Source: Candidatus Liptonbacteria bacterium
GTDB taxonomy: Bacteria > Patescibacteriota > Minisyncoccia > UBA6257 > 2-01-FULL-56-20
Length of the DNA: 64,000 nucleotides
Assembly: GCA_023244935.1 (NCBI GenBank)
Contig: JAHFLJ010000001.1
Span: 13,327 to 77,326, forward strand
Reading direction: 5' to 3'
The position numbers and the translations under genes are program-made. Below the pieces are notes generated by a model, which was not told the origin of the DNA, searched no databases, and saw nothing but the letters and a program-made list of their open reading frames with translations. Of the stretch, positions 3,604 to 64,000 are shown piece by piece. Positions within the stretch are counted from its first letter, which is position 1; each line of letters starts with the position of its first letter.

Positions 3604-5139
3604 CTAAACCAAGTCTCTCAACAAATTTTTCCCGCTCATATCCTCCGGCTGTTTCAATCCCATAATATTCAAAATGGTCGGCGCCACATCCGAGATTATT
3701 CCGATTGGTTCATTCGCAACCGATTGCCAATTAATAAATTTTCTGCCCTTGAACTCTCTGGACATCAAGTAAAAAGGCACCGGCGAAGGGTCGTGCTGAG
3801 TTTCTACCCTGCCGGTCGCGGGATTAATAAGCTCTTCCATATTCCCGTGATCGGAAGTAATAATCACTATGGCATCGGTGTTTAACGCAACCTGGACCAC
3901 TCTCCCTATTTCGGCATCAATTGTTTTAACCGCTTCGAGCGATGCATGATAATTTCCGGAGTGAGCGATAGTATCTCCGTTAGCATAATTAACTAAAATA
4001 AAATCGAATGCCCTATTTTCCATTGCCTGAACAAGTCGGTCGGTAATAGCGGATGCCATCATTTGCGGATGTTCATCCGGATGAGGAATTGGCTCCGAAG
4101 GAACCAGGACCCTGTATTCTCCGGTGTATGGCGTTTCTACATAACTGTTAAAAAAATACGTTACGTGAGCATATTTATAGCTTTCGGCAAGTCTAAGCTG
4201 GGTCAATCCGGCATCGGAAATAACCTTCCCGAGTGGGCTTGTAATTACCTCCGGCGGATACGCCACCGGCACTTGAAATTTATCCATATAATGAGACATC
4301 GTCGCCACATGTAAATTCGGCATCTCTTTCCGTGGGAAGTTATCAAATTCTTTATCGATAAACGCCATAGCAATCTGTCGGATGCTGTCTTCTCTATAAT
4401 TAAAGAAGAAAAGAGCATCCCCATCTTTTATCCCGCAATCGGCCTGGACCTTAAGCGGAACCAAAAACTCCTCGTTTAATCCTTTGGCATAATTATTTTT
4501 TATCAATTCATCCAAATTCCCTCGCACCAGAGTTCCCCCGGATCCGGTCATGCAATCGTATGCCTCTTTAGTCAGTCGCCAGTTCCCCTCGCGGTCCATC
4601 GCGTAATATCTGCCGATAACCGTGGCGATTTTATCCATCGGCAATTCTTTAATTAATCCTTCCAAAGTTTTTGGCGACATATCCTTGCCATCTGCAAAAA
4701 GATGGAGCTTAACCTTGGTTATTCCTTGTTGCTCCGCAAATTTCAATAATGCCTTAACGTGTTCGATTGAGGCATGAACGTTCCCCTTGGAAAGAAGCCC
4801 TGCAAAATTTAGAGTGGAATCGTTTTTCTTGACGTGCTCGACACAGCCCAGAAGCGCCGGATTTTCAAAAAAAGTTCCATCCTGAATCGACATGGTAATC
4901 CTCGGATAATACTGATAGATAACCCGTCCCGACCCCAAAGTTAAGTGACCAACTTCACTATTCCCAACCTCTCCCCACGGAAGCCCGACAGAAATACCCG
5001 AAGCCTGCAGGCTGGTTATAGGATAATTTTCTTCTAAAAATTTAAAAGTTTTTGGCTGAACAACATGAATAGGATTGGATTCATCTTCCTTCCCAATCCC
5101 CCATCCGTCCAAAATTATTAATACAACAGTTCGCCGCAT
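3604..5139 (-). CDS. gpmI: 2,3-bisphosphoglycerate-independent phosphoglycerate mutase
   Basis: MRRTVVLIILDGWGIG... with iPGM metal-binding motifs (SDHGN, AHSGN). The start at ATG 5139 has TATAAT 7 nt upstream, so the mRNA is leaderless or has a short leader. The longer ORF to 5265 covers an intergenic repeat and is rejected. Confidence 0.85.
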   Translation of the reverse strand: MRRTVVLIILDGWGIGKEDESNPIHVVQPKTFKFLEENYPITSLQASGISVGLPWGEVGNSEVGHLTLGSGRVIYQYYPRITMSIQDGTFFENPALLGCVEHVKKNDSTLNFAGLLSKGNVHASIEHVKALLKFAEQQGITKVKLHLFADGKDMSPKTLEGLIKELPMDKIATVIGRYYAMDREGNWRLTKEAYDCMTGSGGTLVRGNLDELIKNNYAKGLNEEFLVPLKVQADCGIKDGDALFFFNYREDSIRQIAMAFIDKEFDNFPRKEMPNLHVATMSHYMDKFQVPVAYPPEVITSPLGKVISDAGLTQLRLAESYKYAHVTYFFNSYVETPYTGEYRVLVPSEPIPHPDEHPQMMASAITDRLVQAMENRAFDFILVNYANGDTIAHSGNYHASLEAVKTIDAEIGRVVQVALNTDAIVIITSDHGNMEELINPATGRVETQHDPSPVPFYLMSREFKGRKFINWQSVANEPIGIISDVAPTILNIMGLKQPEDMSGKNLLRDLV

Positions 5140-5150
5140 ATCGTAGATTA

Positions 5151-5245
5151 TAACGTGTAACGCGTAACTTGTAACGCGTAGCACAAAGACGTGTAGCGTA
5201 TAGCATGTAACTTGTAGCGTGGAATACAAGTTGTATTTGTCATCC
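5151..5245. repeat. two ~33-bp direct repeat units upstream of gpmI
   Basis: acgtgtaacgcgtaacttgtaacgcgtagcac and acgtgtagcgtatagcatgtaacttgtagcgtgg occur in tandem. Confidence 0.4.
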
Positions 5246-5268
5246 CGGGCCTGCTTGCCCGCCAAAGC

Positions 5269-5288
5269 CCTGCCTGCCGGCAGGCAGG
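5269..5288. repeat. perfect 20-bp palindrome CCTGCCTGCCGGCAGGCAGG (also 9664-9683; 16-bp core at 9491-9506; variant at 50974-50989)
   Basis: An exact self-complementary 20-mer found at three loci, each adjacent to an ATTCGTA-rich sequence. Confidence 0.7.
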
Positions 5289-8081: not shown

Positions 8082-9653
8082 CTACCGAGCACAGCGGAAC
8101 CCGATGCTGCCGCCCGTATCCGTCGGACCAGTGCTCAAGATCAACGTCTCTACCCCAGCGTACGTGTCATAATACCAATCCCCACCGCGAACGAAGGCGT
8201 AAGGAGTTGACCCTCCGGCGGAGTATGAGGAATTTATCCTGCCAATTCCCTGAGTTGCGGTCCAGGCTGAATTTGAAGGTCCAGCGAGAGTTGGAGATAA
8301 GGTTCCCCAATTTGTTATGTTCGGAAACTCTCGCCATCCTGTCGGCTGTGGTTGATTTCCGTTGGTGATTGTGTCGTTAGTCCATTCCCAAACGTTCCCT
8401 GCCAAGTCCCAAATAATTTGACCATTCGAAAGAGTGTGGGCACGTCGGTGAGTGAAGTCGGCTGTGACAAGGTAGGTTGAATTGGTGTCGTCTGCAGATG
8501 CAATTTGCGCCGCAGAACCATTTGAATTTCCTCTGCCCAAGTATCCACTTCCGACTGAACTTCCGCTCCAATTACTTGATACACTCTGTGCATTCCAAGC
8601 AATTGTTTGCCATTCGTTGTTGGTGATGAGATGTGCTCCGATAGATTGGCAGTAAGAATGTGAAGTTGTTTGATCGATATTTGCGATTGGGTATCCGGCA
8701 GGAGTGGAAGTTAAATACCTTCCGGATGTATTACAAGGATATCCAGAATTATTATACGTTTGATATCCGGTATCGTAAGGTGCCGATCCAAGCGGACCCG
8801 TAGTATCCGCGCACTTGGCTTCGTATTTCATCACCCAAAAATCAGATGTTCCGAAGGTGGAGTTGCCAGGGACTCTAATCCAACCATTTGGAAAGATTCC
8901 TGCTCCAAGATTCATATTATTTCCCATTTCAAAAGAAGCGGGCGCTGTGCCTCCGTCGGTATTTCCTTGCACAATGTATTTTTGGGATTCCAGGGATACG
9001 GCGGTTAGCTTCCAGCTTCCTCCAGACATATAGGTGTAATAATTCAGACTTGTAGTGGTATTGATTGGATCGATGGGAAGTTGTGAAATTGGAGAATTGG
9101 ATGATATCTTTTGGAAGTTAACCGGAATCCAGCCGGTGCCGTCGGTTTTACGGAGATTGGCAGTGGTGACACAATTGTATTGCCAGCCGGTTGGGAGAGT
9201 TGGCAGACCTAAGTTGGCGCACGTTGAAGATATGTCCGGAATGGATACATAAACCACCGTGGGTGTTCCCATAGATCCTGTGGAGACATCTGCAGAAAAC
9301 AGATTAAGCGCGGTGTTGATTGTCGAGAGATCCGAGAATCGATTGGAATCTCTGGCTTGTTTGAGTAATTCCCCTGGGTTAAGAGCCATAATAACAACCA
9401 CACTTAAAATCGCGACTAGGGCGAGGACTACCAGGAGTTCGATAAGGGTAAAGCTTCCCCGTTTGTTTACCCTGAGAGTAGTCGAAGCCTTGCCTGCCGG
9501 CAGGCAGGGGTCAGTCTGAGCCTGCGAAGAATCTAAATTAGATCCTTCCCTGCGTTCAGGATGACAGAAAAGAGAATTCAAAAACCTGGATTGTCCAAGC
9601 AAGTTGGACAATGACAGAATAGAAAAGAAACTTCCTTTGTTTTTATTCTTCAT
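8082..9653 (-). CDS. prepilin-type N-terminal domain protein fused to a C-terminal FGE-sulfatase (SUMF1/C-type-lectin-fold) domain; start uncertain
   Basis: NKRGSFTLIELLVVLALVAIL is a class III signal. The C-terminus carries HLITNNEWQ, WDLAGNVWEWT, RGGDW and GFRCAR motifs of the FGE-sulfatase family. The gene is GC-richer than its neighbours. The ORF's first ~60 codons lie in a dispersed repeat, and no ATG/GTG/TTG lies between the repeat and the KRG site. Confidence 0.6.
   Translation of the reverse strand: MKNKNKGSFFSILSLSNLLGQSRFLNSLFCHPERREGSNLDSSQAQTDPCLPAGKASTTLRVNKRGSFTLIELLVVLALVAILSVVVIMALNPGELLKQARDSNRFSDLSTINTALNLFSADVSTGSMGTPTVVYVSIPDISSTCANLGLPTLPTGWQYNCVTTANLRKTDGTGWIPVNFQKISSNSPISQLPIDPINTTTSLNYYTYMSGGSWKLTAVSLESQKYIVQGNTDGGTAPASFEMGNNMNLGAGIFPNGWIRVPGNSTFGTSDFWVMKYEAKCADTTGPLGSAPYDTGYQTYNNSGYPCNTSGRYLTSTPAGYPIANIDQTTSHSYCQSIGAHLITNNEWQTIAWNAQSVSSNWSGSSVGSGYLGRGNSNGSAAQIASADDTNSTYLVTADFTHRRAHTLSNGQIIWDLAGNVWEWTNDTITNGNQPQPTGWREFPNITNWGTLSPTLAGPSNSAWTATQGIGRINSSYSAGGSTPYAFVRGGDWYYDTYAGVETLILSTGPTDTGGSIGFRCAR
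9510..9616. repeat. 107-bp dispersed repeat unit, copy A (copy B at 50990-51096, ~95% identical)
   Basis: gtcagtctgagcctgcgaagaatctaaattagatccttccctgcgttcaggatgac... plus the ttgtccaagcaagttggacaa hairpin. It is internally palindromic and flanked by CCTGCC...GGCAGG palindromes. Confidence 0.7.
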
Positions 9654-9881
9654 TCGTATAATTCCTGCCTGCCGGCAGGCAGGCGTATTGATTCGTAATT
9701 TCGTAATTATTCTAAATTCTATTTTCTGAGTTCTATATTCTATGTTCTAACTATACCACATTTTGCCTCTGGGGGGGGCAACAACAGCTGGGGATAGTTA
9801 AAGGACTCATAGCTTATCAACTTATAACAAATAACTAAAAAGAATTTGAGGCCGGAATTATTAGTGATTGGCGATAAGTCA

Positions 9882-22516: not shown

Positions 22517-23098
22517 TTATTTATTTTTTCCGCTTAATATTTTCAAAGCCTCTTTTAATCTATTCTCGAGACCGATTGTATCCGCAGAGATTTTAGCCAG
22601 CGCCACTCGCGCGGTTTCTTTCCTGTAGCCCAAAGATGCCAAAGTCTCAACCAAATCTCCGTCTGACTCCATCGATTTTACAATTTCTTCCGACTGCAAA
22701 GTTGCCACCTTGCCCCTAAGTTCAATAATCACTTTTTCGGCGGTCTTTCTGCCGATACCCGAAGCTTGAGTTAAAAGATCCGGACGGTTTTCAATAATCG
22801 CCGCGGAAAGTTTTCCTATCTCGGCCACGTCCAAAATTGAAAGGGCTGATCTTGGACCTACTCCGGAAACCGAGATTAACAATTCAAAAAATGACAACTC
22901 GGACGGAGATAAAAATCCGTATAAATCCAATGCATCCTCTTTCACGTGTAAATGAGTAAAAATATTCAGCTCTTTTTCTTCCGAAAGATTTCCGAGATCC
23001 TTTTCGGACATGGCAATTTTAAACCCAACGCCGTTCACGTCAAGAACCGTGAATGTATTAAAAACTTTTTTTACCCTCCCATTTAAGCTATATATCAC
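22517..23098 (-). CDS. ruvA: Holliday junction branch migration protein RuvA
   Basis: 193 aa. The N-terminal OB domain and HhH motifs (GIGRKTAEKVIIELRGK) match RuvA. Confidence 0.85.
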   Translation of the reverse strand: MIYSLNGRVKKVFNTFTVLDVNGVGFKIAMSEKDLGNLSEEKELNIFTHLHVKEDALDLYGFLSPSELSFFELLISVSGVGPRSALSILDVAEIGKLSAAIIENRPDLLTQASGIGRKTAEKVIIELRGKVATLQSEEIVKSMESDGDLVETLASLGYRKETARVALAKISADTIGLENRLKEALKILSGKNK

Positions 23099-28423: not shown

Positions 28424-29407
28424 ATGCAAAAGCCAATTTTAGTGTCAGGAATTCAACCAACCGGGAGGCTTCATTTAGGAAATTATTTGGGCGCTTTAAA
28501 AAACTTCGTCTCCCTCCAAAACACCAATAAATACGAGTGTTTTTTCTTTATTGCCGATCTTCATTCAATGACCGAAGAATTCACTCCGAAAGAAAAGGCT
28601 AAACAAATCATTGAACTCGCCGCCGATTTCCTTGCCGTGGGACTAAACCCAAAAAAGGCAACCTTATTCGCGCAGTCTGCAATCCCCGCTCACAATGAAC
28701 TTGCTTGGATTTTAAATACCATGACTCCGATGGGCGAACTTCGCCGAATGACTCAATTCAAAGATAAAGGAGGCGATCAAGAAACCGCCAATGTCGGTCT
28801 TTTCACTTACCCGGTGCTAATGGCGGCGGACATAATTCTTTACGATGCAAAATTTGTTCCGGTGGGAGACGATCAACTTCAACACCTTGAACTCGCGCGA
28901 ACCCTGGCGCGAAAGTTCAATTCCAAATTCGGAAAAACATTTACCGAACCACAACCACTCCTAACCCAGACCCCAAGAGTAATGAGCCTAGATGAACCGT
29001 CTAAAAAAATGAGCAAATCTCGACCACCCGGATGCATCTTTATGGACGACTCTCCGGAAGAAATTCACAAAAAAGTTATGCGTGCCACCACTGACTCCGA
29101 ATCTGTAATCCGCTACGATATTCAAACAAAGCCGGGCATCAGCAACCTTCTCCGCATTTATTCCTCGCTGAGCGGAGAGTTGATCCCTGATCTCGAAAAG
29201 AAATTTGCCGGAATGAATTATTCCGAACTAAAAATTGGACTGTCCAATTTAATCTCGAATTATTTTGCAGAATTCCGAAAAAATAAAAAGGAGATTTTAA
29301 AAAATAAAAAAGGAATAATCTCCGCGCTCTCGGCCGGAAATAAAAAGGCTTCTAAGATATCCGCAGAAAAAATAAAAAAGGTTAAAACCAAAATCGGCTT
29401 AATATAA
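28424..29407 (+). CDS. trpS: tryptophan--tRNA ligase
   Basis: HLGNYLGAL (HIGH region) and the KMSKS motif are present. 327 aa. Confidence 0.9.
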   Translation: MQKPILVSGIQPTGRLHLGNYLGALKNFVSLQNTNKYECFFFIADLHSMTEEFTPKEKAKQIIELAADFLAVGLNPKKATLFAQSAIPAHNELAWILNTMTPMGELRRMTQFKDKGGDQETANVGLFTYPVLMAADIILYDAKFVPVGDDQLQHLELARTLARKFNSKFGKTFTEPQPLLTQTPRVMSLDEPSKKMSKSRPPGCIFMDDSPEEIHKKVMRATTDSESVIRYDIQTKPGISNLLRIYSSLSGELIPDLEKKFAGMNYSELKIGLSNLISNYFAEFRKNKKEILKNKKGIISALSAGNKKASKISAEKIKKVKTKIGLI

Positions 29408-39895: not shown

Positions 39896-40263
39896 GGGGA
39901 TGATGGGCTTCGCCGAGAGACGGAGAGCTTCCCTGCGAGCCGAGCGCAATCTCGCAAATCTTGCACAAACTACTAACTGCCAACTTTAAAGTTGCAGCTC
40001 CTGCCTACGCCTACGCGTAACGCACGGGGATCTCCTGCCTGATTTATCACGCAAGAGGATCGGCTAGCCTTTGCCCTTTGGGTTAATACCGGTCTTATAT
40101 AAAAGGACTACTTCGCGAAGAGGCGACACGACTCTCGCGGATAAAAAATCGTGTCGTCCTGATCAAAAATCAGAACCGTTTCAAATTTATTTTTGAAACT
40201 ACGCTCGTAGACGGGCTGTCTTTGCCCCTTTCGCACGAGGGTTCAACTCCCTCCATCTCCACA
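39896..40263 (+). ncRNA. ssrA: tmRNA (SsrA)
   Basis: 5' GGGGATGATGGGCTTCGCC...GCGAGCCGAG... and 3' GGACGAGGGTTCAACTCCCTCCATCTCC-ACA are clearly alignable to Bacillus-type tmRNA. The tag ORF GCC AAC TTT AAA GTT GCA GCT CCT GCC TAC GCC TAC GCG TAA (39979-40020) gives ANFKVAAPAYAYA. The promoter TTGTCA-17-TATTAT ends 8 nt before the 5' G. Confidence 0.85.
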
Positions 40264-40266
40264 AAC

Positions 40267-40376: not shown

Positions 40377-41999
40377 CTACGATACAATTGAAACCAATAG
40401 CGCGCTCAAAACAAGAAACACAAAAAAGAGAAGGAATATATAATTCTCTTGGTATGGTCTCCTGGTTGCAAACCTATACGCCAAAAAACCTGAAGGTAAT
40501 CCCAAAAAATATAAATAATAGTTAGAAAAGAAAATTGGCACCAGCAAAAAACTTAACCCCAATAGAGCTCCGGTTATTTCTACTCCGCGCGCGCCAAGAA
40601 TAACGGGAAGCGTCATTATGCCCCCGGCCCGATCTCCATCCACGTCTTTAATATCTCGCATATTTGACGCCAACGTCATCATGACAATCACCCCATAAAT
40701 TAAAATCGCCGGAAACGCGCTGAATTTTTTGTCGCCGGAAATCCAAAAGAATCCGGACAAAATTGTTGAAAGGCATGCGATAGATATGAGGAAAGAAGAC
40801 AAAATAGGAATCCTTTTAAGCCTATATGGATTCGCGGAATATACATAATAAGCAGAGGTAAAAACCAAAATCATAAAGAATGGATAGTATCCGACGGAAT
40901 AAGCTCCCAAAAGAGACGCCACGAACCAGATGTAACCAAGTTCCTTCATCTCCTCTTTACTCATTTCTCCGCTAATCAAAGGCCGAGATGGATTCGATAT
41001 CGCGTCGATTGAGATATCCTCTTTATCATTCACATGTATCGCAAAAAAACATGCCAAAATCCAAGAAGTCACAAGACACAAAACGCCTAAAACATCTACC
41101 CAGCTAAAATTTTTAATTGTTGCTTGAGCGCCGGCAACCAAAACTCCGACCCCAAGAAGACTGATATAAAAAGCTAAGCGTTCCGGCCTGGAATTTTTAA
41201 AAACCGCTAAAAATTTACTTTTTTGCTCCTTCCAAAAAATAATTAAGAAAAAAATCAGGGATATTAAAAACAGAATCTGAGAAGAAAATTTATTGAACCC
41301 AAGTTCATAAGCTCCGGTATATGTTTTTGTAGACAATGAACCGCCCAAAGCGTTTTCCGGAATTAAAGACGCATCTATTATTTTTTCGATGTACACGCTT
41401 ACTCCTGACCCTCCCGCCTCAACGTAGCCGGCCGGACTTGCCACCAGATAAACGATACTTGGAAAAGATCCGAGAATAAAAATCAGTATATAAGAGAAAA
41501 GCACGGAACCAATCGTTGCGGAAATTTTCTTTCGCTTAGTCCAAACGTAATAGCCTATAAACACTAAAATTAAAAATATCTCCACCTTCATCCCGAGGGT
41601 CACTCCTTTCGCAAAACCGAAAAACGACAAAAAACTATAAAGCAACTCTTTCGGAACCTTGAAAATATACATCATTCTTGCTCCGGCCGCCCCGCTAGTT
41701 AAAAGATCTACAAGCGGCGGTAGCCAAATAATCGGTAATCCGAAAAATAAAATATTCATCACCGAACCGCTACCTCCGGCGAAAAATTTAACCACCAAGA
41801 AAAGCCCGAGAGCGGCTGCAAGATAAAATAATCCGTAATGAACCAGCGTTCCCCCGTCCACCGTCATATATCCGGAATTTGAAGGGCTAGACATAAACTC
41901 CAAAAAAAACCTTATAAAAACCACGCCGGTAAACCCGGCCATCCACCCCAGAACAGAAGTGTGAGCTTTTTCAATGGTAGAAATAATTTTATTCAACAT
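40377..41999 (-). CDS. UbiA-family prenyltransferase domain (C-terminal half) fused to an N-terminal ~280-aa polytopic membrane domain
   Basis: HVNDKEDISIDAISNPSRPLISG (NDxxDxxxD) and DIKDVDGDRAGGIMTLPV (DxxGD second motif) are present. 540 aa and ~16 predicted TM helices. Confidence 0.6.
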   Translation of the reverse strand: MLNKIISTIEKAHTSVLGWMAGFTGVVFIRFFLEFMSSPSNSGYMTVDGGTLVHYGLFYLAAALGLFLVVKFFAGGSGSVMNILFFGLPIIWLPPLVDLLTSGAAGARMMYIFKVPKELLYSFLSFFGFAKGVTLGMKVEIFLILVFIGYYVWTKRKKISATIGSVLFSYILIFILGSFPSIVYLVASPAGYVEAGGSGVSVYIEKIIDASLIPENALGGSLSTKTYTGAYELGFNKFSSQILFLISLIFFLIIFWKEQKSKFLAVFKNSRPERLAFYISLLGVGVLVAGAQATIKNFSWVDVLGVLCLVTSWILACFFAIHVNDKEDISIDAISNPSRPLISGEMSKEEMKELGYIWFVASLLGAYSVGYYPFFMILVFTSAYYVYSANPYRLKRIPILSSFLISIACLSTILSGFFWISGDKKFSAFPAILIYGVIVMMTLASNMRDIKDVDGDRAGGIMTLPVILGARGVEITGALLGLSFLLVPIFFSNYYLYFLGLPSGFLAYRFATRRPYQENYIFLLFFVFLVLSALLVSIVS

Positions 42000-42631: not shown

Positions 42632-42800
42632 GTATATTTGTTTTTTTCGGTCGACGTTTATGCAAATCAAAGAGCTAATACTGATTAAAATAATGCATCC
42701 CCGAAGAAGTTCTTGCAAGCCCCGCGACTGCTTTCTCTTACCTTGTATTCTAAATTCTATTTTCTAGGTTCTATTTTCTATCCACGTTATAATTCCTCCT

Positions 42801-43346
42801 ATGAGTGTTTTTTATACCGGAAAAGGAGATGGCGGGGAAAGCCTTCTTTGGGACAATAAAAAAATAGATAAGTCCTCAAAGGAGGTTGAATTATTGGGCA
42901 ACTTAGACGAACTAAATAGCACCTTAGGGATAATTAGAAGTATGGCAAATAAAAATTTAGCGAAGCGACTACTGGAAATCCAGCAGAATATATTTTCAAT
43001 CCAGGCGAATATTTTTTATATAATCATTAATAGAAAAAAAGAGGCACCAAAATTCGAATCCGAAAAAACAACCAATCTCGAAAAAGAAATTGCGGAAATC
43101 GAAAAATTATTCCCGCCACAAAAGAAATTTATCATTCCCGGAGAATCCCCTCTTCCCGCCTGGCTGGATTTAGCAAGAACCACCACGAGAAAAGTAGAAC
43201 GGTCCGCTTTCGTTTTCAATAAAACAAAAAAAATCCCCAAGGAAATTCTTTCATATTTGAATCGCCTCTCCAGCCTCTTTTTCGCAATGGCGCGACAAGA
43301 AGCGAGAGTTGAGGGGGTGAGAGAAAACAATCCTCAGTATAAATAA
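42801..43346 (+). CDS. PduO-type ATP:cob(I)alamin adenosyltransferase
   Basis: YTGKGDGGESLL, LLGNLDELNS and the IPGES...LDLARTTTRKVER motifs match the PduO/MMAB family. Confidence 0.75.
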   Translation: MSVFYTGKGDGGESLLWDNKKIDKSSKEVELLGNLDELNSTLGIIRSMANKNLAKRLLEIQQNIFSIQANIFYIIINRKKEAPKFESEKTTNLEKEIAEIEKLFPPQKKFIIPGESPLPAWLDLARTTTRKVERSAFVFNKTKKIPKEILSYLNRLSSLFFAMARQEARVEGVRENNPQYK

Positions 43347-55686: not shown

Positions 55687-58122
55687 ATGATTAAAGTTTT
55701 AAGTAAAATGAGCAGGTTCTTAAAGCGCAAAAGTAAAAAAGAACTATTTTTATATTTGCTCGGGATTATTGGAATTATAATTTTAGCCGGAGGCCTTTTT
55801 GTTCTTTATTTAATCAAAACCCTTCCCTCTGTAGAACAAATTAAAACCAGAGAAATGTCCCAGTCTACCAAAATTTTTGACCGAAGCGGAACGGTTCTTT
55901 TATATGAAATTAGCGCCGGAGAAAAGCGCACGGTTATTCCGGAAGATAAGATTCCCCAATCTCTAAAAGACGCGATACTTTCGATTGAAGATGAAAAATT
56001 TTATGAAGAACCGGCTTTTGACTGGAGATCGATGATCCGCGCGCTTCTCGCCAATCTAAAAAGTGGAGAAGTGGTGCAAGGAGGATCAACCATAACTCAG
56101 CAGTTGGCAAAAAACGCGTTCCTTTCGGCTGAACAAACTATTCTACGCAAAGTTAAAGAGTTGATTCTGGCGGTAAGAATTAATCAATATTATTCGAAAG
56201 ACAAAATCCTTTGGCTTTATATAAACGAAGTTCCTTTCGGACCTACTGTTTATGGGGCGGAGTCCGCGAGTTTTTTATATTTCGGGAAATCCGCAACTGA
56301 CCTTTCTGTTCCCGAAAGCGCGGTTCTCGCCGCCATACTCAAAGCGCCAAGCTACTATTATCCGGGAGGAAATCACGTGCCCGAACTTTTAAAACGAAAA
56401 GATTTGGTCTTAAAAAAGATGAAAGATCTCGGAAAAATATCCGAAAAAGAATTTTCCTCCGCGATTAAAGAAAAAATTAAATTTATTCCGATTATCTCCG
56501 GCATAAAAGCCCCTCATTTTGTTATGACGGTACAAGATTATTTAATAAATAAATATGGAGAAGAATTGGTAAGAAAGGGTGGTCTTCAGATTACAACTAC
56601 TCTCGATTGGTCTTTGCAACAAGCCGCGGAAAAGGCAGTTAAAGATGGTGCTTTAAACAACGAAAAACTTTACAAGGGAAAGAATGCCGCGCTGGTAGCT
56701 GAAAACGCAACCTCGGGTCAAATTTTGGCGCTGGTTGGCTCTCGGGACTACTTCGAGACTGAAAATGATGGAAATTTTAATGTCGCCACTCAAGGACTTC
56801 GCCAGCCGGGATCTTCTCTTAAGCCTTTCGTATATCTAGCGGCTTTTGAAAAAGGATTGACTCCCGACACGATTCTTTTTGATGTCCCCACGGAGTTTTC
56901 CGCAAACAACGCTGTCTGTCCGCCGGTTCCTAATTATAAAAGCGAAAACACAAAATGTTTTCATCCGGAAAATTTTGACCATATTTTTGTCGGCCCGGTT
57001 AGCATGAGAGATGCGCTGGCTCAATCAATCAATATTCCTGCGGTAAAAACCCTTTATATTGCCGGTCTCAATAATGTTATCAAAAAAGCTAATCTATTCG
57101 GACTTCAAACTCTTAACGACCCCTCTATATACGGACTCTCTTTGGTTTTAGGTGGAGGAGCGGTTCACTTAATCGACTCGGTTGAAGCTTATTCAACTCT
57201 CGCAAACGATGGAGAAAGAGCGGAACAATCCTATATCCTCGAAATTAAAGATGCCAAAGGAAATATTTTAGAAAAATATTCTCCTAAAATCTCCAGAGCT
57301 ACCGAACCTCAATATGCCCGAGAAATAAATAATATTCTTTCTGATGCAACTGCTCGCGGGCCTCTTTTCCAGAATAGTCTTGATTTAACCGTTTTCCCGG
57401 GAAAAGACGTAGCTATGAAGACCGGTACCAGCAATGATTATCGAGATGCGTGGACTCTTGGTTATACTCCTGAATTAGTTGTAGGTGTTTGGGCTGGAAA
57501 CAACGATAACTCCCCGATGCAAAGAAGTGGCTCAAGCCTCTTGGCGGCTGTTCCGATTTGGAATGCTTTTATGAAAGAAGCTTTGAAAATAATTCCAACC
57601 GGAGCATTTATAAAACCTGATATCAGAATTCCGGAAAAACCTATTTTACGTGGAGAATATGTAGTTAATGGTCAAATTCATAATATTCTTTATTATATCG
57701 ACAAAAATAATCCAACCGGACCGGTTCCGGAGAACCCTCAAGAAGATTCTCAATTTATTAATTGGGAAACCGGAGTTCTTTCTTGGGTTTCTCGACACGC
57801 AACTGAACTCCAAACGAGGTTTTCCTCCTCCGGGTTTGGACAAATAGACGTCAAAATAAATAATCCACAAAATAATTCTTTTTCTTCCGGAGAAATATTT
57901 CTTAATACTTCAATCTCCTCACTCAATAATTTATCGGAAGTAAGAGTTTATTTTAATGATACTTTAATTTACAATGCCGGACTTCCTAAAGAAAAAACTT
58001 ATAATTTTGTTTGGTCTTTTACTCCTGTTCAAATAAATCAACAAAATACCTTATCGGTTGAGGTCTTTGATGAGACCGGGAAAAGTAGCAAATCTTCGGT
58101 TATAATTTATAAACAAAATTAA
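55687..58122 (+). CDS. penicillin-binding protein 1A (bifunctional glycosyltransferase/transpeptidase)
   Basis: An N-terminal TM is followed by GT51 motifs (EDEKFYEEP, GGSTITQQLAKN) and transpeptidase SxxK (SSLKP), SxN and KTG(T) motifs. Confidence 0.85.
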   Translation: MIKVLSKMSRFLKRKSKKELFLYLLGIIGIIILAGGLFVLYLIKTLPSVEQIKTREMSQSTKIFDRSGTVLLYEISAGEKRTVIPEDKIPQSLKDAILSIEDEKFYEEPAFDWRSMIRALLANLKSGEVVQGGSTITQQLAKNAFLSAEQTILRKVKELILAVRINQYYSKDKILWLYINEVPFGPTVYGAESASFLYFGKSATDLSVPESAVLAAILKAPSYYYPGGNHVPELLKRKDLVLKKMKDLGKISEKEFSSAIKEKIKFIPIISGIKAPHFVMTVQDYLINKYGEELVRKGGLQITTTLDWSLQQAAEKAVKDGALNNEKLYKGKNAALVAENATSGQILALVGSRDYFETENDGNFNVATQGLRQPGSSLKPFVYLAAFEKGLTPDTILFDVPTEFSANNAVCPPVPNYKSENTKCFHPENFDHIFVGPVSMRDALAQSINIPAVKTLYIAGLNNVIKKANLFGLQTLNDPSIYGLSLVLGGGAVHLIDSVEAYSTLANDGERAEQSYILEIKDAKGNILEKYSPKISRATEPQYAREINNILSDATARGPLFQNSLDLTVFPGKDVAMKTGTSNDYRDAWTLGYTPELVVGVWAGNNDNSPMQRSGSSLLAAVPIWNAFMKEALKIIPTGAFIKPDIRIPEKPILRGEYVVNGQIHNILYYIDKNNPTGPVPENPQEDSQFINWETGVLSWVSRHATELQTRFSSSGFGQIDVKINNPQNNSFSSGEIFLNTSISSLNNLSEVRVYFNDTLIYNAGLPKEKTYNFVWSFTPVQINQQNTLSVEVFDETGKSSKSSVIIYKQN

Positions 58123-59225
58123 GACTTAAGTATCGGCATTAATATATACACAAACGATCCTTCATTCGGCTCTCGAATTGTCGCCGGTTTACTTTCGTCG
58201 TTTATTCCGATAAAAACTTCTTCGGTTTTTACGGCTCTTACTCCGTCACTTAAATATTTCCAATTAAAGCTTATTTTTTCGAATGAGCCTTTTATTTTTG
58301 AAGAAAGAGTATAAACATTTTCTCCGACAGATTCTTCGTTAGAAAATATTTTAATTGCTCGGTCTCCTTCTTTTTCAATATTTATCTCGTTAGTTCTTGA
58401 ACTTAAAATCGAGGATAATTTTAAGGCATTTAATAAATCATTTTTATTTATGACTACTTCGGCATCTACCTTTTTAGGTATCAGCTGTTTATAATCCGGA
58501 AATTTATTATCCAGTAAACGAGAAATTATCTCTACTTTTTCGTTTTCCAATAAAATTTGGCTTTCTTCGATATATATATTCACTTCGCCTTCTTTAAAAA
58601 TTTTTGAAGCTTCCACCGCGGTTTTCAAAGGGATCAAACAAGTAATATTTTCCATTCCTTCTTGTTTAAAATCTCCCTCTTTTATTTTTTTCTCGGCAAG
58701 CCGGAAGCTATCCGTGGAAGTTAAAACTAAAAACTCGTTCTCCAGCGTGAATAAAACTGAATTTAGATCCGGTCGGTTTTCTAATACCTGCGCCGCGGAG
58801 AGAACTTGTTCAAGTGAGCTTTTAAAATTGTCGGCACTCATCGAAATAAAATTCTTTTTACTTTTTATTTTAGGAATTAGAGGATATTCATCCGAAGAAA
58901 TACACTGAAGCTTGGCATTATAGTTATCCGTCTTAATATCTAAAACTCCGTTTTTAACTTCCAAATTTATTCTTTCGGTTTGGATTCCATTTACTATTCC
59001 TGAAAATAAAGCCAACGGTATTGTCGTCACTCCTTCTTCAATTACCTTCCCGGCTATGTAAGCGGTTATCGCAATTTCGAGGTTGGTCGAAACTAATTTA
59101 ATCTTATTATTTTTCGCCTCAAATAATATATTTTTTAATATCGGCAATTCTTTATTCTCTCCTCCTGATCTGGAAACAGAGTCTAATCCTTCTTTTAATT
59201 TTTCTTTAATTACTACTACATTCAT
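58119..59225 (-). CDS. dnaN: DNA polymerase III subunit beta (sliding clamp)
   Basis: 368 aa with three-domain clamp architecture, immediately downstream of dnaA. Confidence 0.85.
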   Translation of the reverse strand: MNVVVIKEKLKEGLDSVSRSGGENKELPILKNILFEAKNNKIKLVSTNLEIAITAYIAGKVIEEGVTTIPLALFSGIVNGIQTERINLEVKNGVLDIKTDNYNAKLQCISSDEYPLIPKIKSKKNFISMSADNFKSSLEQVLSAAQVLENRPDLNSVLFTLENEFLVLTSTDSFRLAEKKIKEGDFKQEGMENITCLIPLKTAVEASKIFKEGEVNIYIEESQILLENEKVEIISRLLDNKFPDYKQLIPKKVDAEVVINKNDLLNALKLSSILSSRTNEINIEKEGDRAIKIFSNEESVGENVYTLSSKIKGSFEKISFNWKYLSDGVRAVKTEEVFIGINDESKPATIREPNEGSFVYILMPILKS

Positions 59226-59345
59226 GTATTAATAAGATAGTTGTTGTTGTAGAGACGACTAATTCTGTGGATAAATCGGTTTGTTCTAGGTTTTAATTGA
59301 ATCGGTGTTGTGGATAAAAACGCTTTTGCCCGGGGATTAAGGGGA
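59226..59345. promoter_or_regulatory. candidate oriC segment with two perfect DnaA boxes
   Basis: tgtggataa (reverse complement TTATCCACA) at 59266-59274 and 59309-59317, in the dnaA-dnaN gap. A third near-consensus box (tgttgataa) lies at 60773-60781 upstream of dnaA, together with AT-rich tracts. Confidence 0.55.
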
Positions 59346-60704
59346 TTATTCCTTGAAAACAAGTTCTTTAATTAAATTCATTTTTTGGCTCAAGGAAGAA
59401 TTTTGGTTGATTTCCCTGGAGATTTTCTCAACCGCGTGAATTGCAGTGGTATGATCCCTACCCATCTTTTCCCCAATGTGTGGGTAAGACATCTCCAGGA
59501 TTTCCCTAATTAAGAACATCGCTACTTGGCGAGGCTCAACAATCTCCTTTTTTCGCACTCTCCCGGTCATTTCTTCCACGGAGATATTGTAAAAATCGGA
59601 AACAGCTTTAATAATTTGATCTTCGGAAACTCGATGAGAAAAATCTTTAACCGTTTTTCGAATAATCTCTTCAACCTCTTTTGGATTAAGGTCAATTCTT
59701 TTGGCTTCTCGATAAAAAAGTATTTTATTTAAAACTCCTTCGATTTCTCGGACGTTCTTTTTTACTTTTCTTGCTATTAGATCAATAACCTCTTCACTTA
59801 GATTCCTATCTTGTTCTAATAATTTACTCTTAATAATCGCCACCCGCATCTCGTATTCCGGAAACCCGATGTCTGCGGTCAGTCCTGCCTCAAAACGCGA
59901 CCTGAGGCGTTCCTCAAGGGTTGGTAGGGATTGTGGAGGACGGTCGGAAGAAATTATTATTTGTTTGTTTAGTTCATGCAGAGCGTTAAAAGTATAGAAA
60001 AATTCTTCTTCGGTTGCTCTTTTACCGCCCACAAACTGAATATCATCGATAATTAAAAGATCGCAGTCTCGATATCTCCTTTTAACGTCTTCCATTCTTT
60101 TATTTTTTATTCCCCAAATCACATCGCTGGTAAATTTTTCGGAGGTCACATATCGCGGCCGTAATTTTCCTCCGTATCGCGCCTTAACTTCATTTCCAAT
60201 GCCTTGTATTAAATGAGTTTTTCCTAAACCAACCCCTCCATAAACAAAGAAAGGATTATATTTGGTTCCAATCTCGTCGATAATCGCGTTTGCGGCCGCG
60301 AAGGCCAATTCGTTTGAAGAACCAACCACAAAAGATTTTAAAGTGTAGCGGGAATTTAAATTTGTCTCCGGATCTATCTTAAAATCCAAATTTATTTTAT
60401 TTTCGAATCGTTGAAAATCCCCCGTGGTAATTTTTTGAGTTTTCGGCTCAAGCACGGCAGTGCTATGAACTACAAACTCCAAGTTTTTTGTAGAAGGGTC
60501 AAAATTTCTAACCGCTCCGAGAATATTTTTATTATATTTATTTTCAACCCACTCCTTCGCGAAATTATTCGGCAAAGAGATAATCAAAGTTCCATCTCGC
60601 TTATCGACAATCCTGCTATTTTTAAGCCAGGTTGCAAAATTAGCCCTAGAAAGCTGAACCTCCATCTCACCTAAAGCAGACTGCCAAAGTTTTTCCAAAT
60701 CCAT
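59346..60704 (-). CDS. dnaA: chromosomal replication initiator DnaA
   Basis: AAA+ Walker A GGVGLGKTHL, sensor motifs, and a C-terminal DNA-binding signature (HTTAIHAVEKI). 452 aa. Confidence 0.9.
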   Translation of the reverse strand: MDLEKLWQSALGEMEVQLSRANFATWLKNSRIVDKRDGTLIISLPNNFAKEWVENKYNKNILGAVRNFDPSTKNLEFVVHSTAVLEPKTQKITTGDFQRFENKINLDFKIDPETNLNSRYTLKSFVVGSSNELAFAAANAIIDEIGTKYNPFFVYGGVGLGKTHLIQGIGNEVKARYGGKLRPRYVTSEKFTSDVIWGIKNKRMEDVKRRYRDCDLLIIDDIQFVGGKRATEEEFFYTFNALHELNKQIIISSDRPPQSLPTLEERLRSRFEAGLTADIGFPEYEMRVAIIKSKLLEQDRNLSEEVIDLIARKVKKNVREIEGVLNKILFYREAKRIDLNPKEVEEIIRKTVKDFSHRVSEDQIIKAVSDFYNISVEEMTGRVRKKEIVEPRQVAMFLIREILEMSYPHIGEKMGRDHTTAIHAVEKISREINQNSSLSQKMNLIKELVFKE

Positions 60705-60808
60705 TGATAGTATTCTATGCGTAAAATCAGATTCGTCAAAGGACGCTGTTTTTAGGTAACTGCGGATATCCTGTTGATAACTTATTTTTTTTGTGATAAA
60801 ATAGAATC

Positions 60809-60943
60809 ATGTCCCAAACATACAACCCTAAAAAGAAAAAAAGAGTAAGAACTCATGGGTTTCTGACCAGAAACACAACAAAAGGAGGAAAAAAGGTATT
60901 AAAACGCAGAAGAGCCAAAGGAAGAAAGAAGCTTTCCGTTTAA
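60809..60943 (+). CDS. rpmH: 50S ribosomal protein L34
   Basis: A 44-aa [47 protein letters not shown], absent from the ORF track. It holds the canonical position upstream of rnpA. Confidence 0.85.
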
Positions 60944-60948
60944 AAACC

Positions 60949-61260
60949 ATGCTAAATAAAAAGAATAGGCTATCCCCTACGGAATTTAGGGGGCAAAAAG
61001 CCCATTCTTTTTTTATTTCAAAATTTAAAGTGTTATTTGTCAAAAAAAATGAAGGAGTTAATCGTTTTGCGGTTATTATTCCGGCTACAGTAGTAAAAAA
61101 AGCCGTCGATAGGCATTATTGGAGGCGGAGGATAGCTGAAACTGCCAGACTGTGGAAAAATAAAGGATTAGATGCTATTATCTTTGTTAAGAATGCCCCG
61201 CAGAAAAAGGAAAAAGATGAGTTGCTATCGGCTCTATCTAAAGAAATTAATAAAATATAA
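60949..61260 (+). CDS. rnpA: ribonuclease P protein component
   Basis: 103 aa, basic, with the RNR-like motif region (HYWRRRIAE). Flanked by rpmH and yidC. Confidence 0.8.
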   Translation: MLNKKNRLSPTEFRGQKAHSFFISKFKVLFVKKNEGVNRFAVIIPATVVKKAVDRHYWRRRIAETARLWKNKGLDAIIFVKNAPQKKEKDELLSALSKEINKI

Positions 61261-61968
61261 ATGATCGGCTCACTATTTAACACAATCCTCTACAAACCAC
61301 TCTTAAACCTTCTTATTCTGCTATATGAGCATGTAACCTTCGGAGATTTAGGGCTGGCCATTATATTAATAACCATTCTCGTTAGAATTGTTCTTTTACC
61401 GCTTTTTGAAAAACAAACCAGGTATCAGCTGGTGATGCAAAAAATTCAGCCTCAAATAAAAGAAGTGGAAAAAAAGCACAAAGGAGATAAAGCTAAACAA
61501 ACCGAGGCAATGATGGCGATTTATAAGGAACACAAAACAAATCCTTTTTCCGGCTTTTTAATCCTATTCATTCAAATTCCGATACTTATCGCGCTATATA
61601 AGATAATCTCGGCCGTGGTGGGCGCAGCTGGGTTTTCCGGTGACCTGTATTCTTTTGTCCCGGCCCCCGAAACAATCAATATTATGTTCTTGGGCTTGAT
61701 AAATTTAGGAAAAGCCAATATCCTAATCGTAGTTCTGGCGGCTCTAGCTCAGTTTTTCCAAGCTAAAACCACCATGTTCAAAAAGAAGCCCGGAGAGGAG
61801 GAGACTCCTCAGGAGAAAGCGGGAAGAACGATGGTCTATGTAACTCCCCTTCTAACCGTTTTTCTGTTTTATAACTTTCCGGCGGCCATCTCTCTCTATT
61901 GGCTCGTGGCTTCAGCGCTTTCCATTATCCAGCAGATAATAATTAAGAGAAAAATAGCAAATGATTAA
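61261..61968 (+). CDS. yidC: membrane protein insertase YidC (short Gram-positive-type)
   Basis: 235 aa with 5 TM helices and a conserved Arg in TM1 (ILVRIVLLPL). Confidence 0.85.
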   Translation: MIGSLFNTILYKPLLNLLILLYEHVTFGDLGLAIILITILVRIVLLPLFEKQTRYQLVMQKIQPQIKEVEKKHKGDKAKQTEAMMAIYKEHKTNPFSGFLILFIQIPILIALYKIISAVVGAAGFSGDLYSFVPAPETINIMFLGLINLGKANILIVVLAALAQFFQAKTTMFKKKPGEEETPQEKAGRTMVYVTPLLTVFLFYNFPAAISLYWLVASALSIIQQIIIKRKIAND

Positions 61969-62395
61969 TTGGGAAGAATATACAAAAGAATTATTCAACA
62001 AAATGGGGTTTGCGGACTTCAGTTTTGACTTTGACGCCGAACACCGGCACGGCGGAGTTTTTCTATATGAAAAAGATCTGATAATAAAGGACAACCTGGC
62101 TTTTTTTGTCGAGAATCTAAACCACGTTTTGCAGTTGGTTGCTCAAAAAAATGGCGAAGATAAAGTTTATATAGATATAAACAATTATAGGAAAGAAAGA
62201 GAAAAACTTCTTATAGAATTGGCCAAAGCCGCCGCTCGCAAAGCCGTCTCCACCAAGCAAGAGATTCCGTTACCGGCAATGAATTCTTATGAGAGAAGAA
62301 TTGTCCACGCGGAGTTGTCCGCCCGACCCGATGTAAAGACCGAAAGCCAAGGGATGGGAAGAGAAAGATTTATAACAATAAAACCGCTCGATTAG
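61961..62395 (+). CDS. jag: Jag/KhpB-like R3H-domain RNA-binding protein
   Basis: A C-terminal R3H region (YERRIVHAEL). Canonical position after yidC. Confidence 0.7.
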   Translation: MINWEEYTKELFNKMGFADFSFDFDAEHRHGGVFLYEKDLIIKDNLAFFVENLNHVLQLVAQKNGEDKVYIDINNYRKEREKLLIELAKAAARKAVSTKQEIPLPAMNSYERRIVHAELSARPDVKTESQGMGRERFITIKPLD

Positions 62396-62478
62396 AAAAT
62401 AGAACATGGAATTTAGAAAATAGAATAATACATCGATTTCATTCTAAATTCTATTTTCTACGTTCTAGGTTCTAACCG
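62394..62478. repeat. TAGAA-family palindromic repeat (inverted pair) between convergent genes
   Basis: tagaaaatagaacatggaatttagaaaatagaata ... cattctaaattctattttctacgttctaggttcta. It probably acts as a bidirectional terminator. Confidence 0.6.
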
Positions 62479-62551: not shown

Positions 62552-63835
62552 TTATCTATTTGGAACCGAGTAGAGGAAATTATTATTCCTATTTATAAAA
62601 TAAATTTCGTTTTCGCCGGAGAAAGGTTTGTATATATCCATCTGCGCTTCTGTCGGCGAGAATACATATCCCAATGAACCATCGTCCAGATTAATTTTAA
62701 CCAAGTCGTCGCTCATCACTAATGATCCACGATAATATTCATCCGGCAAAATAGCTGACTCAAAAGCCTTGGTGTCTCTGGGAAACGCGCAGTAGAGCTC
62801 ATTTTGTGAATGCGTAGGAGTTGTGCTGGCAGAAGTCGAAGTGGCGACCTTAGTTTTAACAACCGAGGTCGTGGCCATCTCAAAATATGAACGAGGGTGA
62901 AAAAAAGAACATTTTTCGGCAAGAGTTGTGACCGTAAGTTTGCTGGACTCTTCTCCTCCGGCTAGACGAATCCTAAGGTTTCCGCCTCGATAGGTTTCGT
63001 TCCCATAAAAAGCCAAACCCATAGATCCCAAATCGTTCCAAACTACGCTTAACGCATATTCGTCTTTTATGAGCGGAATGGCGGTTTTTTTGGAAAGGTT
63101 AAAAGCGATTATGGTATTTTTGATATATGCGGAAGGTCGGCTATTTATCAAAAGAGTATCCTTATCTCTCCACGATAAAATCGGATCTTCTATTTGCAGA
63201 GAGGAGATTTGTTGAGGGGTTGTTTTTGGTTTATCTAAATCCCAAATAAATAAGTTTTTTGTTCCCATTTTCTCATATAAATAAACAACTTCATGGGTTT
63301 TAGGGCGGATTGTCGCGGTAGTATTTGCTAAAATCGGTTGCCAAGTACTTGAGGCAACATCATAGACACTAAACTGTGGAGCGGTTATCTTTCCATAGGT
63401 TAAAAGAATTTTTTTACCATCATTTGAGAATACAACTTCGAGCGGATTCTCAATTTCGGAATTATTCAACTCTCTAGTCTCTCCGGTAGTGGAAACCGAA
63501 GCAACTACTCCCTTTTGGGTCACTAAAATAACTCCTCCGTCCGCAACAGGAGAGAACCCTAAAATTGGTTCTTTATATAAAATTTTCGAACCCAACACGG
63601 TTGTTACTACGTCTTCGCCGGCCAGATTTCCCCCGGTTGCTTCGCTACTACTCCCATTTTCCCCGATAGGTAGCTCAGAAGTTTCTCCCGTCTGTCCGGA
63701 GGGTAGAGTGGCTCCAGAGTCGGTGCCTGTTGGGACTCCGGCGACCTGGTCGGTTCTAGTCCCAAAATAAACACCGGCGCCAACAACTCCCGCAACTGCC
63801 AGAAATATCAATATTATTTTTATCGTTTTGGACAT
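62552..63835 (-). CDS. membrane-anchored beta-propeller (PD40/TolB-like) hypothetical protein
   Basis: The start MSKTIKIILIFLAVAG at 63835 is preferred. A Thr/Ser/Gly linker is followed by repeated hydrophobic-Asp/Gly patterns (SNDGKKILLTYG, WRDKDTLLINS). Confidence 0.45.
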   Translation of the reverse strand: MSKTIKIILIFLAVAGVVGAGVYFGTRTDQVAGVPTGTDSGATLPSGQTGETSELPIGENGSSSEATGGNLAGEDVVTTVLGSKILYKEPILGFSPVADGGVILVTQKGVVASVSTTGETRELNNSEIENPLEVVFSNDGKKILLTYGKITAPQFSVYDVASSTWQPILANTTATIRPKTHEVVYLYEKMGTKNLFIWDLDKPKTTPQQISSLQIEDPILSWRDKDTLLINSRPSAYIKNTIIAFNLSKKTAIPLIKDEYALSVVWNDLGSMGLAFYGNETYRGGNLRIRLAGGEESSKLTVTTLAEKCSFFHPRSYFEMATTSVVKTKVATSTSASTTPTHSQNELYCAFPRDTKAFESAILPDEYYRGSLVMSDDLVKINLDDGSLGYVFSPTEAQMDIYKPFSGENEIYFINRNNNFLYSVPNR

Positions 63836-64000
63836 TTTAGTTACTTGTTTTACACACATCTGAAGTTGTCTGCACGCAAAAATCTCCGATATTATCGGCT
63901 CCGTATTGCTTAAGTAAATTAACACAATTGGAGTCGCAATAAGATTTAGTCCTCGGTGTACCGTCGGGAGAAGTTCGGCTCACGCAAGAGAGCCATCTTT

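Follow-up and report, generated by a model that had tools for sequence, protein, structure and literature searches.

A compact candidate replication origin with Bacillus-like anatomy in the dnaA-dnaN gap of a Candidatus Liptonbacteria genome

The surroundings of dnaA in this Candidatus Liptonbacteria genome raise the question of whether they hold the chromosomal origin of replication and, if so, in which of the two gaps flanking dnaA the duplex is opened. Literature searches found no dissected origin from the CPR/Patescibacteria, and no CPR entry was seen in the accessible part of the published survey of basal unwinding systems (BUS). An earlier note on the 64,000-nucleotide stretch analysed here (the window) held that it very probably spans oriC. 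The anatomy supports this view, since an oriented DnaA box is followed in the dnaA-dnaN gap by a 13-bp spacer, a triplet block, an AT-rich stretch of low stability, and dnaN. This gap probably (at roughly 0.8, judged from sequence and homology) contains the part of oriC at which the chromosome is unwound in an uncultured CPR bacterium of the Paceibacteria type, similar to the BUS of Bacillus subtilis.

The gene order rpmH-rnpA-yidC-jag / dnaA-dnaN, on which the earlier note had relied as canonical for bacterial origin regions, is borne out by Pfam matches (Table 1). A query with DnaA retrieved 80 genome and 80 metagenome loci, and 136 unique gaps or loci were analysed (numbered L001 onwards where they need to be told apart). 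All retrieved loci belong to Patescibacteria/CPR, namely Paceibacteria and Liptonbacteria-, Harrisonbacteria-, and Wolfebacteria-like MAGs, with DnaA identities from 94% (CAZTBQ01) to 54% and 82% for the top metagenome relative. The population itself is present in the metagenome samples ERZ27279977 and ERZ27279942. The divergent arrangement of rpmH, dnaA, and dnaN recurs in almost every locus whose upstream sequence is long enough to show it, with L078 as an exception, and the dnaN ATG start is kept in 136 of 136 relatives. The G+C content is 0.35-0.38 around the origin module (57000-62000), compared to about 0.42 elsewhere in the window. An Rfam scan returned no RNA element in either gap; its only matches in the window are a tmRNA gene (39896-40264, tag peptide ANFKVAAPAYAYA) and tRNA-Leu(CAG) (1001-1085).

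Table 1. Coordinates of genes and sequence features at the dnaA locus, and of the dispersed repeat, in the 64-kb window.
Feature	Position	Strand	Description
dnaN (DNA polymerase III beta clamp)	58119-59225	-	368 aa; Pfam DNA_pol3_beta domains 1-3
Predicted DNA unwinding element	59190-59239	.	AT-rich gap end and dnaN start
dnaA-dnaN gap	59226-59345		120 bp
AT-rich 12 nt	59226-59237	-	TCTTATTAATAC; between triplet block and dnaN ATG
DnaA-trio-like triplet block	59238-59252	-	5'-CTA CAA CAA CAA CTA-3'; complement 3'-GAT GTT GTT GTT GAT-5'
13-bp spacer	59253-59265	-	GAATTAGTC (59257-59265) and GTCT (59253-59256)
DnaA box B	59266-59274	-	Perfect TTATCCACA; proximal to triplet block
DnaA box A	59309-59317	-	Perfect TTATCCACA; 43 bp (about 4 helical turns) upstream of box B
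dnaA	59346-60704	-	452 aa; Pfam DnaA_N, Bac_DnaA, Bac_DnaA_C
dnaA promoter	60712-60739	-	TTGACG-16-TAGAAT; ends 7 nt before ATG; 10/12 consensus matches
Weak DnaA box	60761-60769	-	ATATCCGCA; 2 mismatches; 2 bp from the TTATCAACA box
Upstream DnaA box	60772-60780	-	TTATCAACA; 1 mismatch; upstream of dnaA; overlaps rpmH -35 hexamer
rpmH promoter	60774-60802	+	TTGATA-17-(TGa)TAAAAT; ends 6 nt before ATG; 10/12 matches, extended -10
rpmH	60809-60943	+	Pfam Ribosomal_L34; divergent from dnaA
rnpA	60949-61260	+	Pfam Ribonuclease_P; divergent from dnaA
yidC	61261-61968	+	Pfam 60KD_IMP; divergent from dnaA
jag/R3H	61961-62395	+	Pfam R3H; divergent from dnaA
Dispersed TAGAA-unit repeat	1279-1346, 9717-9749, 42755-42780, 62393-62460		Four intergenic sites

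Two exact DnaA boxes in minus orientation had been noticed in the dnaA-dnaN gap, and they prove to be the sole perfect TTATCCACA sites in the whole 64 kb. Perfect sites are expected at about 0.44 per 64 kb and about 8e-4 per 120-bp stretch, so that the presence of two in one 120-bp gap (chance about 3e-7) is far beyond chance. When one mismatch is allowed, 22 boxes occur in the window, 6 of which lie within 57.9-61.2 kb, and the 64 kb hold no second cluster of good boxes. The locus has four boxes in total, which is few for an origin and counts against reading it as one. A direct repeat, GGGGATTA, occurs twice at 59332-59348 over the dnaA stop codon (minus strand TAATCCCC TTAATCCCC); it is weakly box-like, with 3 mismatches, and is without conservation in relatives.

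Alignment with the closest relatives shows that both perfect boxes are maintained. Box A is kept as TTATCCACA, TTATCAACA, or TTATCCCCA, and the site orthologous to box B in L003-L006 as TTATCCACA, TTTTCCCCA, or TTATCCCCA, within a region that reads TTATCCACAGAA, TTTTCCCCAGAAA, or TTATCCCCAGAAA. Counted on the alignment, the two boxes start 43 bp apart in the window, L003, L004, and L005 and 53 bp apart in L006, such that the sole change in spacing amounts to exactly 10 bp or one whole helical turn. At DnaA identities of 79-94%, conservation in the gap is limited to box A, box B, the triplet block, and the AT-rich tail.

The orientation and density of boxes extend this picture to the full set of loci. 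Across the 136 dnaA-dnaN gaps, boxes with at most one mismatch that face dnaN have a density of 5.27 per kb, compared to 0.12 per kb elsewhere (about 44-fold), and the orientations are split 108:14, with the majority running dnaA-to-dnaN. The 400 bp upstream of dnaA in the relatives are also enriched in oriented boxes (2.02 per kb, 17-fold), with an orientation of 104:3. Oriented boxes on both sides of dnaA are as found in bipartite Firmicutes origins, and the window, too, has boxes in each of the two gaps that flank dnaA.

The gap of the window is ordered, from dnaA towards dnaN, as a box, a 13-bp spacer, CTA CAA CAA CAA CTA, 12 AT-rich base pairs, and the dnaN ATG. The triplet block is kept in relatives with 79-94% DnaA identity while its flanks diverge, and it begins 13-14 bp past box B in the window and the closest relatives, placed relative to the box as the B. 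subtilis trios are. Its variants include CTA CAA CTA CAA CTA, CTA CTA CAA CAA TTA, and CTA CAA CAA CCA CTA, and the TTATTAAT in the AT-rich tail is kept in the closest relatives. Many distant relatives feature a good box, usually abutting a weaker box, then a GC-rich spacer of about 4 bp, in-frame triplets (CTA/TTA/CTG or CAA/TAA/CAG), AT-rich DNA, and dnaN. The second-box position holds GAATTCACA, AAATCCACA, or TTTCCACA in relatives; in the window it holds GAATTAGTC, which has 7 mismatches and is no longer box-like. The distance from the box to the triplet run in relatives has a median of 11 bp and a mode of 13, whereas anywhere from 1 to 73 nt separate the run from the dnaN ATG, so the run is tied more tightly to the box than to the start codon. 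The automatic triplet-run finder is noisy and sometimes takes in the last bases of the second box, or the AT-rich tail, such that its counts are approximate.

The duplex is also predicted to be weak at the AT-rich end of the gap and the start of dnaN. The 50-mer at 59190-59239 is 84% A+T with a nearest-neighbour duplex energy of -50.1 kcal/mol, and only three 50-mers in the 64 kb, none of them near the origin, are less stable (rank 4, 99.96th percentile). This predicted unwinding region includes the first 12 or so dnaN codons. The AT-rich inverted repeats after jag (62389-62478) were considered as an alternative unwinding element and rejected, as they are part of a dispersed four-site repeat and are without boxes.

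As published, a BUS has a box with at most two mismatches oriented to the trios, a spacer of 0-16 bp (most commonly 13), and at least three consecutive trios whose middle base is adenine on the strand that, leading away from the box, reads 3' to 5' (Richardson 2019; Pelliciari 2021). A second, weaker tandem box within 0-3 bp is optional and present in 57% of predicted BUS. The window has the perfect box B with a 13-bp spacer to the conserved triplet block, and the tandem box is absent. The box cluster lies in non-coding DNA beside a predicted AT-rich unwinding element, and the DnaA encoded next to it has an intact AAA+ domain and domain IV. The triplets themselves fit less completely. In canonical DnaA-trios the middle base of the bound strand is adenine, so that the dnaA-sense strand reads CTA, TTA, or CTG, and in the window three of five triplets are CAA, with a central T on the bound strand. 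As the central base is canonical in only two of five conserved triplets (3'-GAT GTT GTT GTT GAT-5'), and these are not consecutive, the block misses the strict definition. Positions 1 and 3 of the triplets fit canonical trios (C/T and A/G). The published BUS regular expression is formally matched by TTA GTC GTC with a spacer of 3, a stretch that is not conserved in L003-L006. The CAA/TAA/CAG triplets were also considered as canonical trios on the opposite strand; this appears less likely and was set aside because their polarity relative to the box is reversed and there is no inverted box downstream.

The sequence of DnaA offers a possible reason for the deviating central base. Among solved structures, the window DnaA best matches the B. 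subtilis protein of the BUS complex (8btg, E = 1e-101), with which it aligns over its full length. It keeps the PRQ, P..IG, and RDHTT..H motifs of the DNA-binding domain, which correspond to the base-contacting residues in 1J1V, the structure of E. coli domain IV with DNA. Asn187 hydrogen-bonds the central adenine of each DnaA-trio in the B. subtilis structure, and changes of the central A to T impair initiation while C is tolerated. At the positions of B. subtilis Asn187, Asn196, and Arg202, the window DnaA has Ser, Lys, and Lys, respectively, and it keeps Glu183, Ile190, Ile193, Lys222, and Glu228 (B. subtilis numbering). Position 187 is Ser in 74 of the 136 relatives, Asn in 56, Arg in 4, and Gly and Ala in one each. 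The central base of the first six triplets, in approximate counts from the triplet finder, is A in 74% and T in 19% with Ser-type DnaA, compared to A in 35% and T in 58% with Asn-type DnaA, while positions 1 and 3 are alike in both types. The raw association between residue 187 and the central base has a p of about 8e-9, a value inflated by shared ancestry.

A neighbour-joining tree was therefore read for contrasts within clades, which differ in clarity. An Asn subclade inside the Ser clade (L033/L035/L038) has CTA/CTG runs, which is a clear contrast, and an Arg group (L036/L037/L134) has N-T-N triplet runs, which is a fairly clear one; L012 is weak, L047 is non-supporting, and one group with A/T-only runs is uninformative. 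Relatives with Asn at this position have canonical CTA/TTA/CTG runs. That Ser at the Asn187 position goes with the non-canonical central base in the window is suggestive only. Since the central base flips between A and T among the closest relatives of the window, Ser may relax the central-base preference rather than switch it. A tentative and rather doubtful extension is that the DnaA-trio code has changed or relaxed in the branch of Paceibacteria that includes this genome, with Ser (rarely Ala/Gly) accompanying Y-A-R triplets, which read CAA/TAA/CAG on the dnaA-sense strand and so place T in the middle of the bound one, while Asn/Arg neighbours are canonical (CTA/TTA/CTG), in a natural co-variation of initiator and motif.

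Strand bias was read at third codon positions (GC3), because raw GC skew tracks gene orientation, and the sequence was extended to the right by 4.1 kb from an identical contig (100% identity over an 8.8-kb overlap); contigs with exactly matching proteins were all 12-13 kb long. Left of the locus, the plus-strand GC3 skew is -0.24 for minus-strand genes and -0.21 for plus-strand genes; as it is alike on both gene strands, it reflects a true strand effect, with a fork moving leftwards. A single change point fits best at about 58.2 kb (range 54.7-59.9 kb); the mean is -0.236 to its left and -0.004 to its right, and the skew rises to about 0 over 58-60.7 kb. The earlier note had held that the window very probably spans the switch of strand bias and had proposed a cumulative skew plot as a check. 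In the available sequence, the cumulative GC3 minimum lies at 60,702, the dnaA start codon, and the negative skew ends at dnaA, but the right arm stays near zero (0.005 +/- 0.039 over 62.5-68 kb, versus the +0.2 expected for a clean reversal). As no positive skew appears in 7.4 kb rightwards, the switch is only half shown in this genome. The relatives show it more fully, with a dnaA-strand skew of -0.064 on the rpmH side and +0.082 past dnaN. In 65 of 74 loci the skew is higher on the right side than on the left (p = 8e-12), and 49 of 74 change sign at dnaA-dnaN. For 29 of 48 loci, the cumulative skew is at its lowest somewhere from the start of dnaA to the end of dnaN.

A block of minus-strand genes adjoins the origin beyond jag (62552-64000, continued in L001:1-4239, which is window-equivalent 63836-68075). 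It encodes a T4SS pilin-like protein and a VirB4/TraG-like P-loop ATPase just past jag, and its GC3 skew is about 0, unlike the remainder of the contig. The flanking genes on both sides, 55687-58122 (plus strand) and 62552-68075 (minus strand), point at the origin module, an orientation that is also dominant among the relatives' loci. Genes facing the module on both flanks would be head-on to the forks, and this counts against the origin reading.

The gap upstream of dnaA has its own box anatomy. The one-mismatch box TTATCAACA described there earlier is real, and its coordinates (60773-60781) were one base off (Table 1); the AT-rich tract reported between dnaA and rpmH is present as well and contains a T8 run (about 60780-60808). 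The weak box beside it reads TATTCCCCA or TCTTCCCCA at the orthologous positions in L004-L006. Because GTTATCAACAG around the upstream box is invariant in the window and L002-L006, and because box A of L004 carries the TTATCAACA variant instead of TTATCCACA, the upstream TTATCAACA is taken as a real box that doubles as an operator. Together, the upstream boxes look like a small box pair or operator rather than an unwinding site. A search for trios in this gap gave none. The hexamers of the dnaA promoter and their distance to the ATG are kept in L003-L006, and the predicted dnaA transcript is likely leaderless; the rpmH promoter is also kept in relatives. The T run at 60784-60791, within the spacer of the rpmH promoter, is polymorphic at the strain level, with T8 in the window and T7 in L002 and L165. 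The T7 allele sets the rpmH -35/-10 spacing to 16 instead of 17 bp, and with it the gene caller lengthens dnaA to 487 aa.

Several features of the window concern gene starts and repeats in general. The Shine-Dalgarno motif is nearly absent from its genes, and the upstream regions are A-rich (for example 40377-41999, 42801-43346, 22517-23098, and 28424-29407). Many genes have a -10-like hexamer (TATAAT, TAAAAT, TAGAAT) whose end lies 6-8 nt ahead of the start codon, a pattern suggestive of widespread leaderless mRNAs; in the case of dnaA, 45 of 131 relatives have a hexamer at that distance, compared to 21 in shuffled controls. A dispersed intergenic repeat of TAGAA(A/C/T)(A/G)TAGAA units occurs 12 times, versus 1.3 expected, and forms long AT-rich inverted repeats, for example after jag. 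It seems to break assemblies, as contigs of this organism stop about 72 nt past jag in three independent cases, and could be a terminator or a REP-like element. A GC-rich 20-bp palindrome, CCTGCCTGCCGGCAGGCAGG, is found three times (0 expected; 5269-5288, 9489-9508, and 9664-9683), and two of the copies lie just upstream of gene starts (genes 3604-5265 and 8082-9653).

Other explanations of the locus have to be weighed against an unwinding site between dnaA and dnaN. Unwinding might instead take place in the rpmH-dnaA gap (60705-60808), with the dnaA-dnaN boxes merely an auxiliary DnaA-loading or regulatory cluster. Transcription diverges from this gap, the cumulative GC3 minimum lies at its edge, the fully conserved TTATCAACA box stands beside the weak box and the T8 tract, and relatives show a 17-fold enrichment of oriented boxes on this side of dnaA. 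Past these boxes, however, there is no triplet run and the sequence is not conserved, the 104 bp are nearly filled by two conserved promoters, and the least stable 50-mer of the gap is at the 97th percentile, compared to 99.96 on the dnaN side. The skew has a resolution of about +/-1.5 kb, so its minimum cannot separate the two gaps flanking dnaA and favours neither. Unwinding upstream of dnaA thus appears quite unlikely. The triplet block might also be an unstructured C/A-rich leader that aids dnaN translation rather than a single-strand element for DnaA, in which case the origin could still be here. Since the window genes are essentially without Shine-Dalgarno motifs, such a leader is a sensible rival; upstream regions in the window are A-rich, the block lies 12 nt from the dnaN ATG, and its central bases are mostly non-canonical for trios. 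It is nevertheless an improbable one, because a CAA-repeat leader is found at 0 of 48 other gene starts in the window, the run in relatives has a steady position relative to the boxes and a variable one relative to the ATG, and positions 1 and 3 of the triplets fit canonical trios at the very site of the B. subtilis trios.

It is very improbable that the boxes are just transcriptional operators for dnaN (and dnaA/rpmH), with the true origin elsewhere on the chromosome. DnaA is known as a transcription factor in other bacteria, according to the abstract of PMC13438810, the upstream box overlaps the rpmH -35 hexamer, and the skew is not positive right of the locus within the available sequence. 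Operators alone would leave unexplained a conserved triplet block at a fixed distance and the helical phasing of the boxes. A dnaN promoter was also sought beside the boxes, and a -10-like hexamer is present in the gap at 41 of 136 loci, compared to 35 in shuffled controls, which is no enrichment and leaves no canonical promoter detectable. The skew changes at this locus in the window and switches sign there across relatives, and the 64 kb contain no other box cluster for a competing site.

With the dnaA-dnaN gap as the preferred site of unwinding, anatomy and homology suggest the following order of events. DnaA would bind both perfect boxes, facing dnaN, which at 43 bp apart lie on the same helix face. 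A DnaA-ATP oligomer would then grow from box B over the 13-bp spacer onto the five-triplet block and engage the strand complementary to 5'-CTA CAA CAA CAA CTA-3'. The adjacent low-stability stretch, which overlaps the dnaN start codon, would open, and the helicase would presumably be loaded there. The box pair upstream of dnaA (60761-60780) may form the second lobe of a bipartite origin, and as it overlaps the divergent rpmH/dnaA promoters, DnaA probably also regulates both genes.

Placing the origin fixes the replichore orientation for the contig and supports coverage-based estimates of growth rate for such genomes. The Bacillus-type unwinding module is also extended to a deep lineage with reduced genomes, where it is very compact and its unwinding region runs into dnaN. 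If the link between Ser at position 187 and T-centred triplets is true, it would provide a handle on how DnaA proteins recognise different single-strand origin motifs. The locus is very probably a DnaA-dependent origin of an ordinary, expected kind in a little-studied lineage, and it stands out for how compact it is and for a trio code that may be altered.

Among known systems, the closest likeness is to B. subtilis oriC, whose incC/BUS region (boxes 6 and 7, trios, AT-rich unwinding element) occupies the same dnaA-dnaN gap in the same order and orientation. The B. subtilis BUS likewise has about 13 bp from box to triplets, followed by triplet repeats, AT-rich DNA, and dnaN, and a second set of boxes upstream of dnaA gives the same bipartite layout as in the window. 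The B. subtilis scaffold consists of TTATCCACA, AATCCACA, GGCC, and CTA CTA TTA CTT CTA CTA (Pelliciari et al. 2021, supplement), and the gap of L038 of TTATCAACA, GAATTCACA, CCCC, and CTA CTA ATA CTG CTT CTG. Set against this scaffold, the gaps of the relatives have the order, orientation, and spacing of the Bacillus basal unwinding system. The window differs from B. subtilis in being smaller (120 bp with two good boxes and no recognisable second tandem box), in a predicted unwinding element that overlaps the dnaN start codon, and in having CAA instead of CTA in three of five triplets.

Clostridioides difficile similarly has boxes on both sides of dnaA, with unwinding mapped to the dnaA-dnaN gap (oriC2 of its bipartite origin) and trios (5'-CACCTACTACTATTACTACTATGA-3') immediately before the unwinding element. 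It has 5-9 boxes in oriC2 and 9-19 in oriC1, compared to two and two in the window. The minimal oriC of Thermotoga maritima is 149 bp, so a very small origin works, and the window gap is likewise small. Within the Paceibacteria, the accessible part of the published description places type IV secretion genes near dnaA, dnaN, rpmH, and rnpA and treats dnaA as a putative origin marker, without origin anatomy; the window shares this neighbourhood through its T4SS pilin and VirB4/TraG-like ATPase genes past jag. Different DnaA proteins read different single-strand motifs on the same strand, TAG repeats versus TTATT, on a basis stated to be unresolved. The window has no TTATT motif of the E. coli type on its bound strand, which reads 5'-TAG TTG TTG TTG TAG-3' and, being T-rich, stands between these two types of motif.
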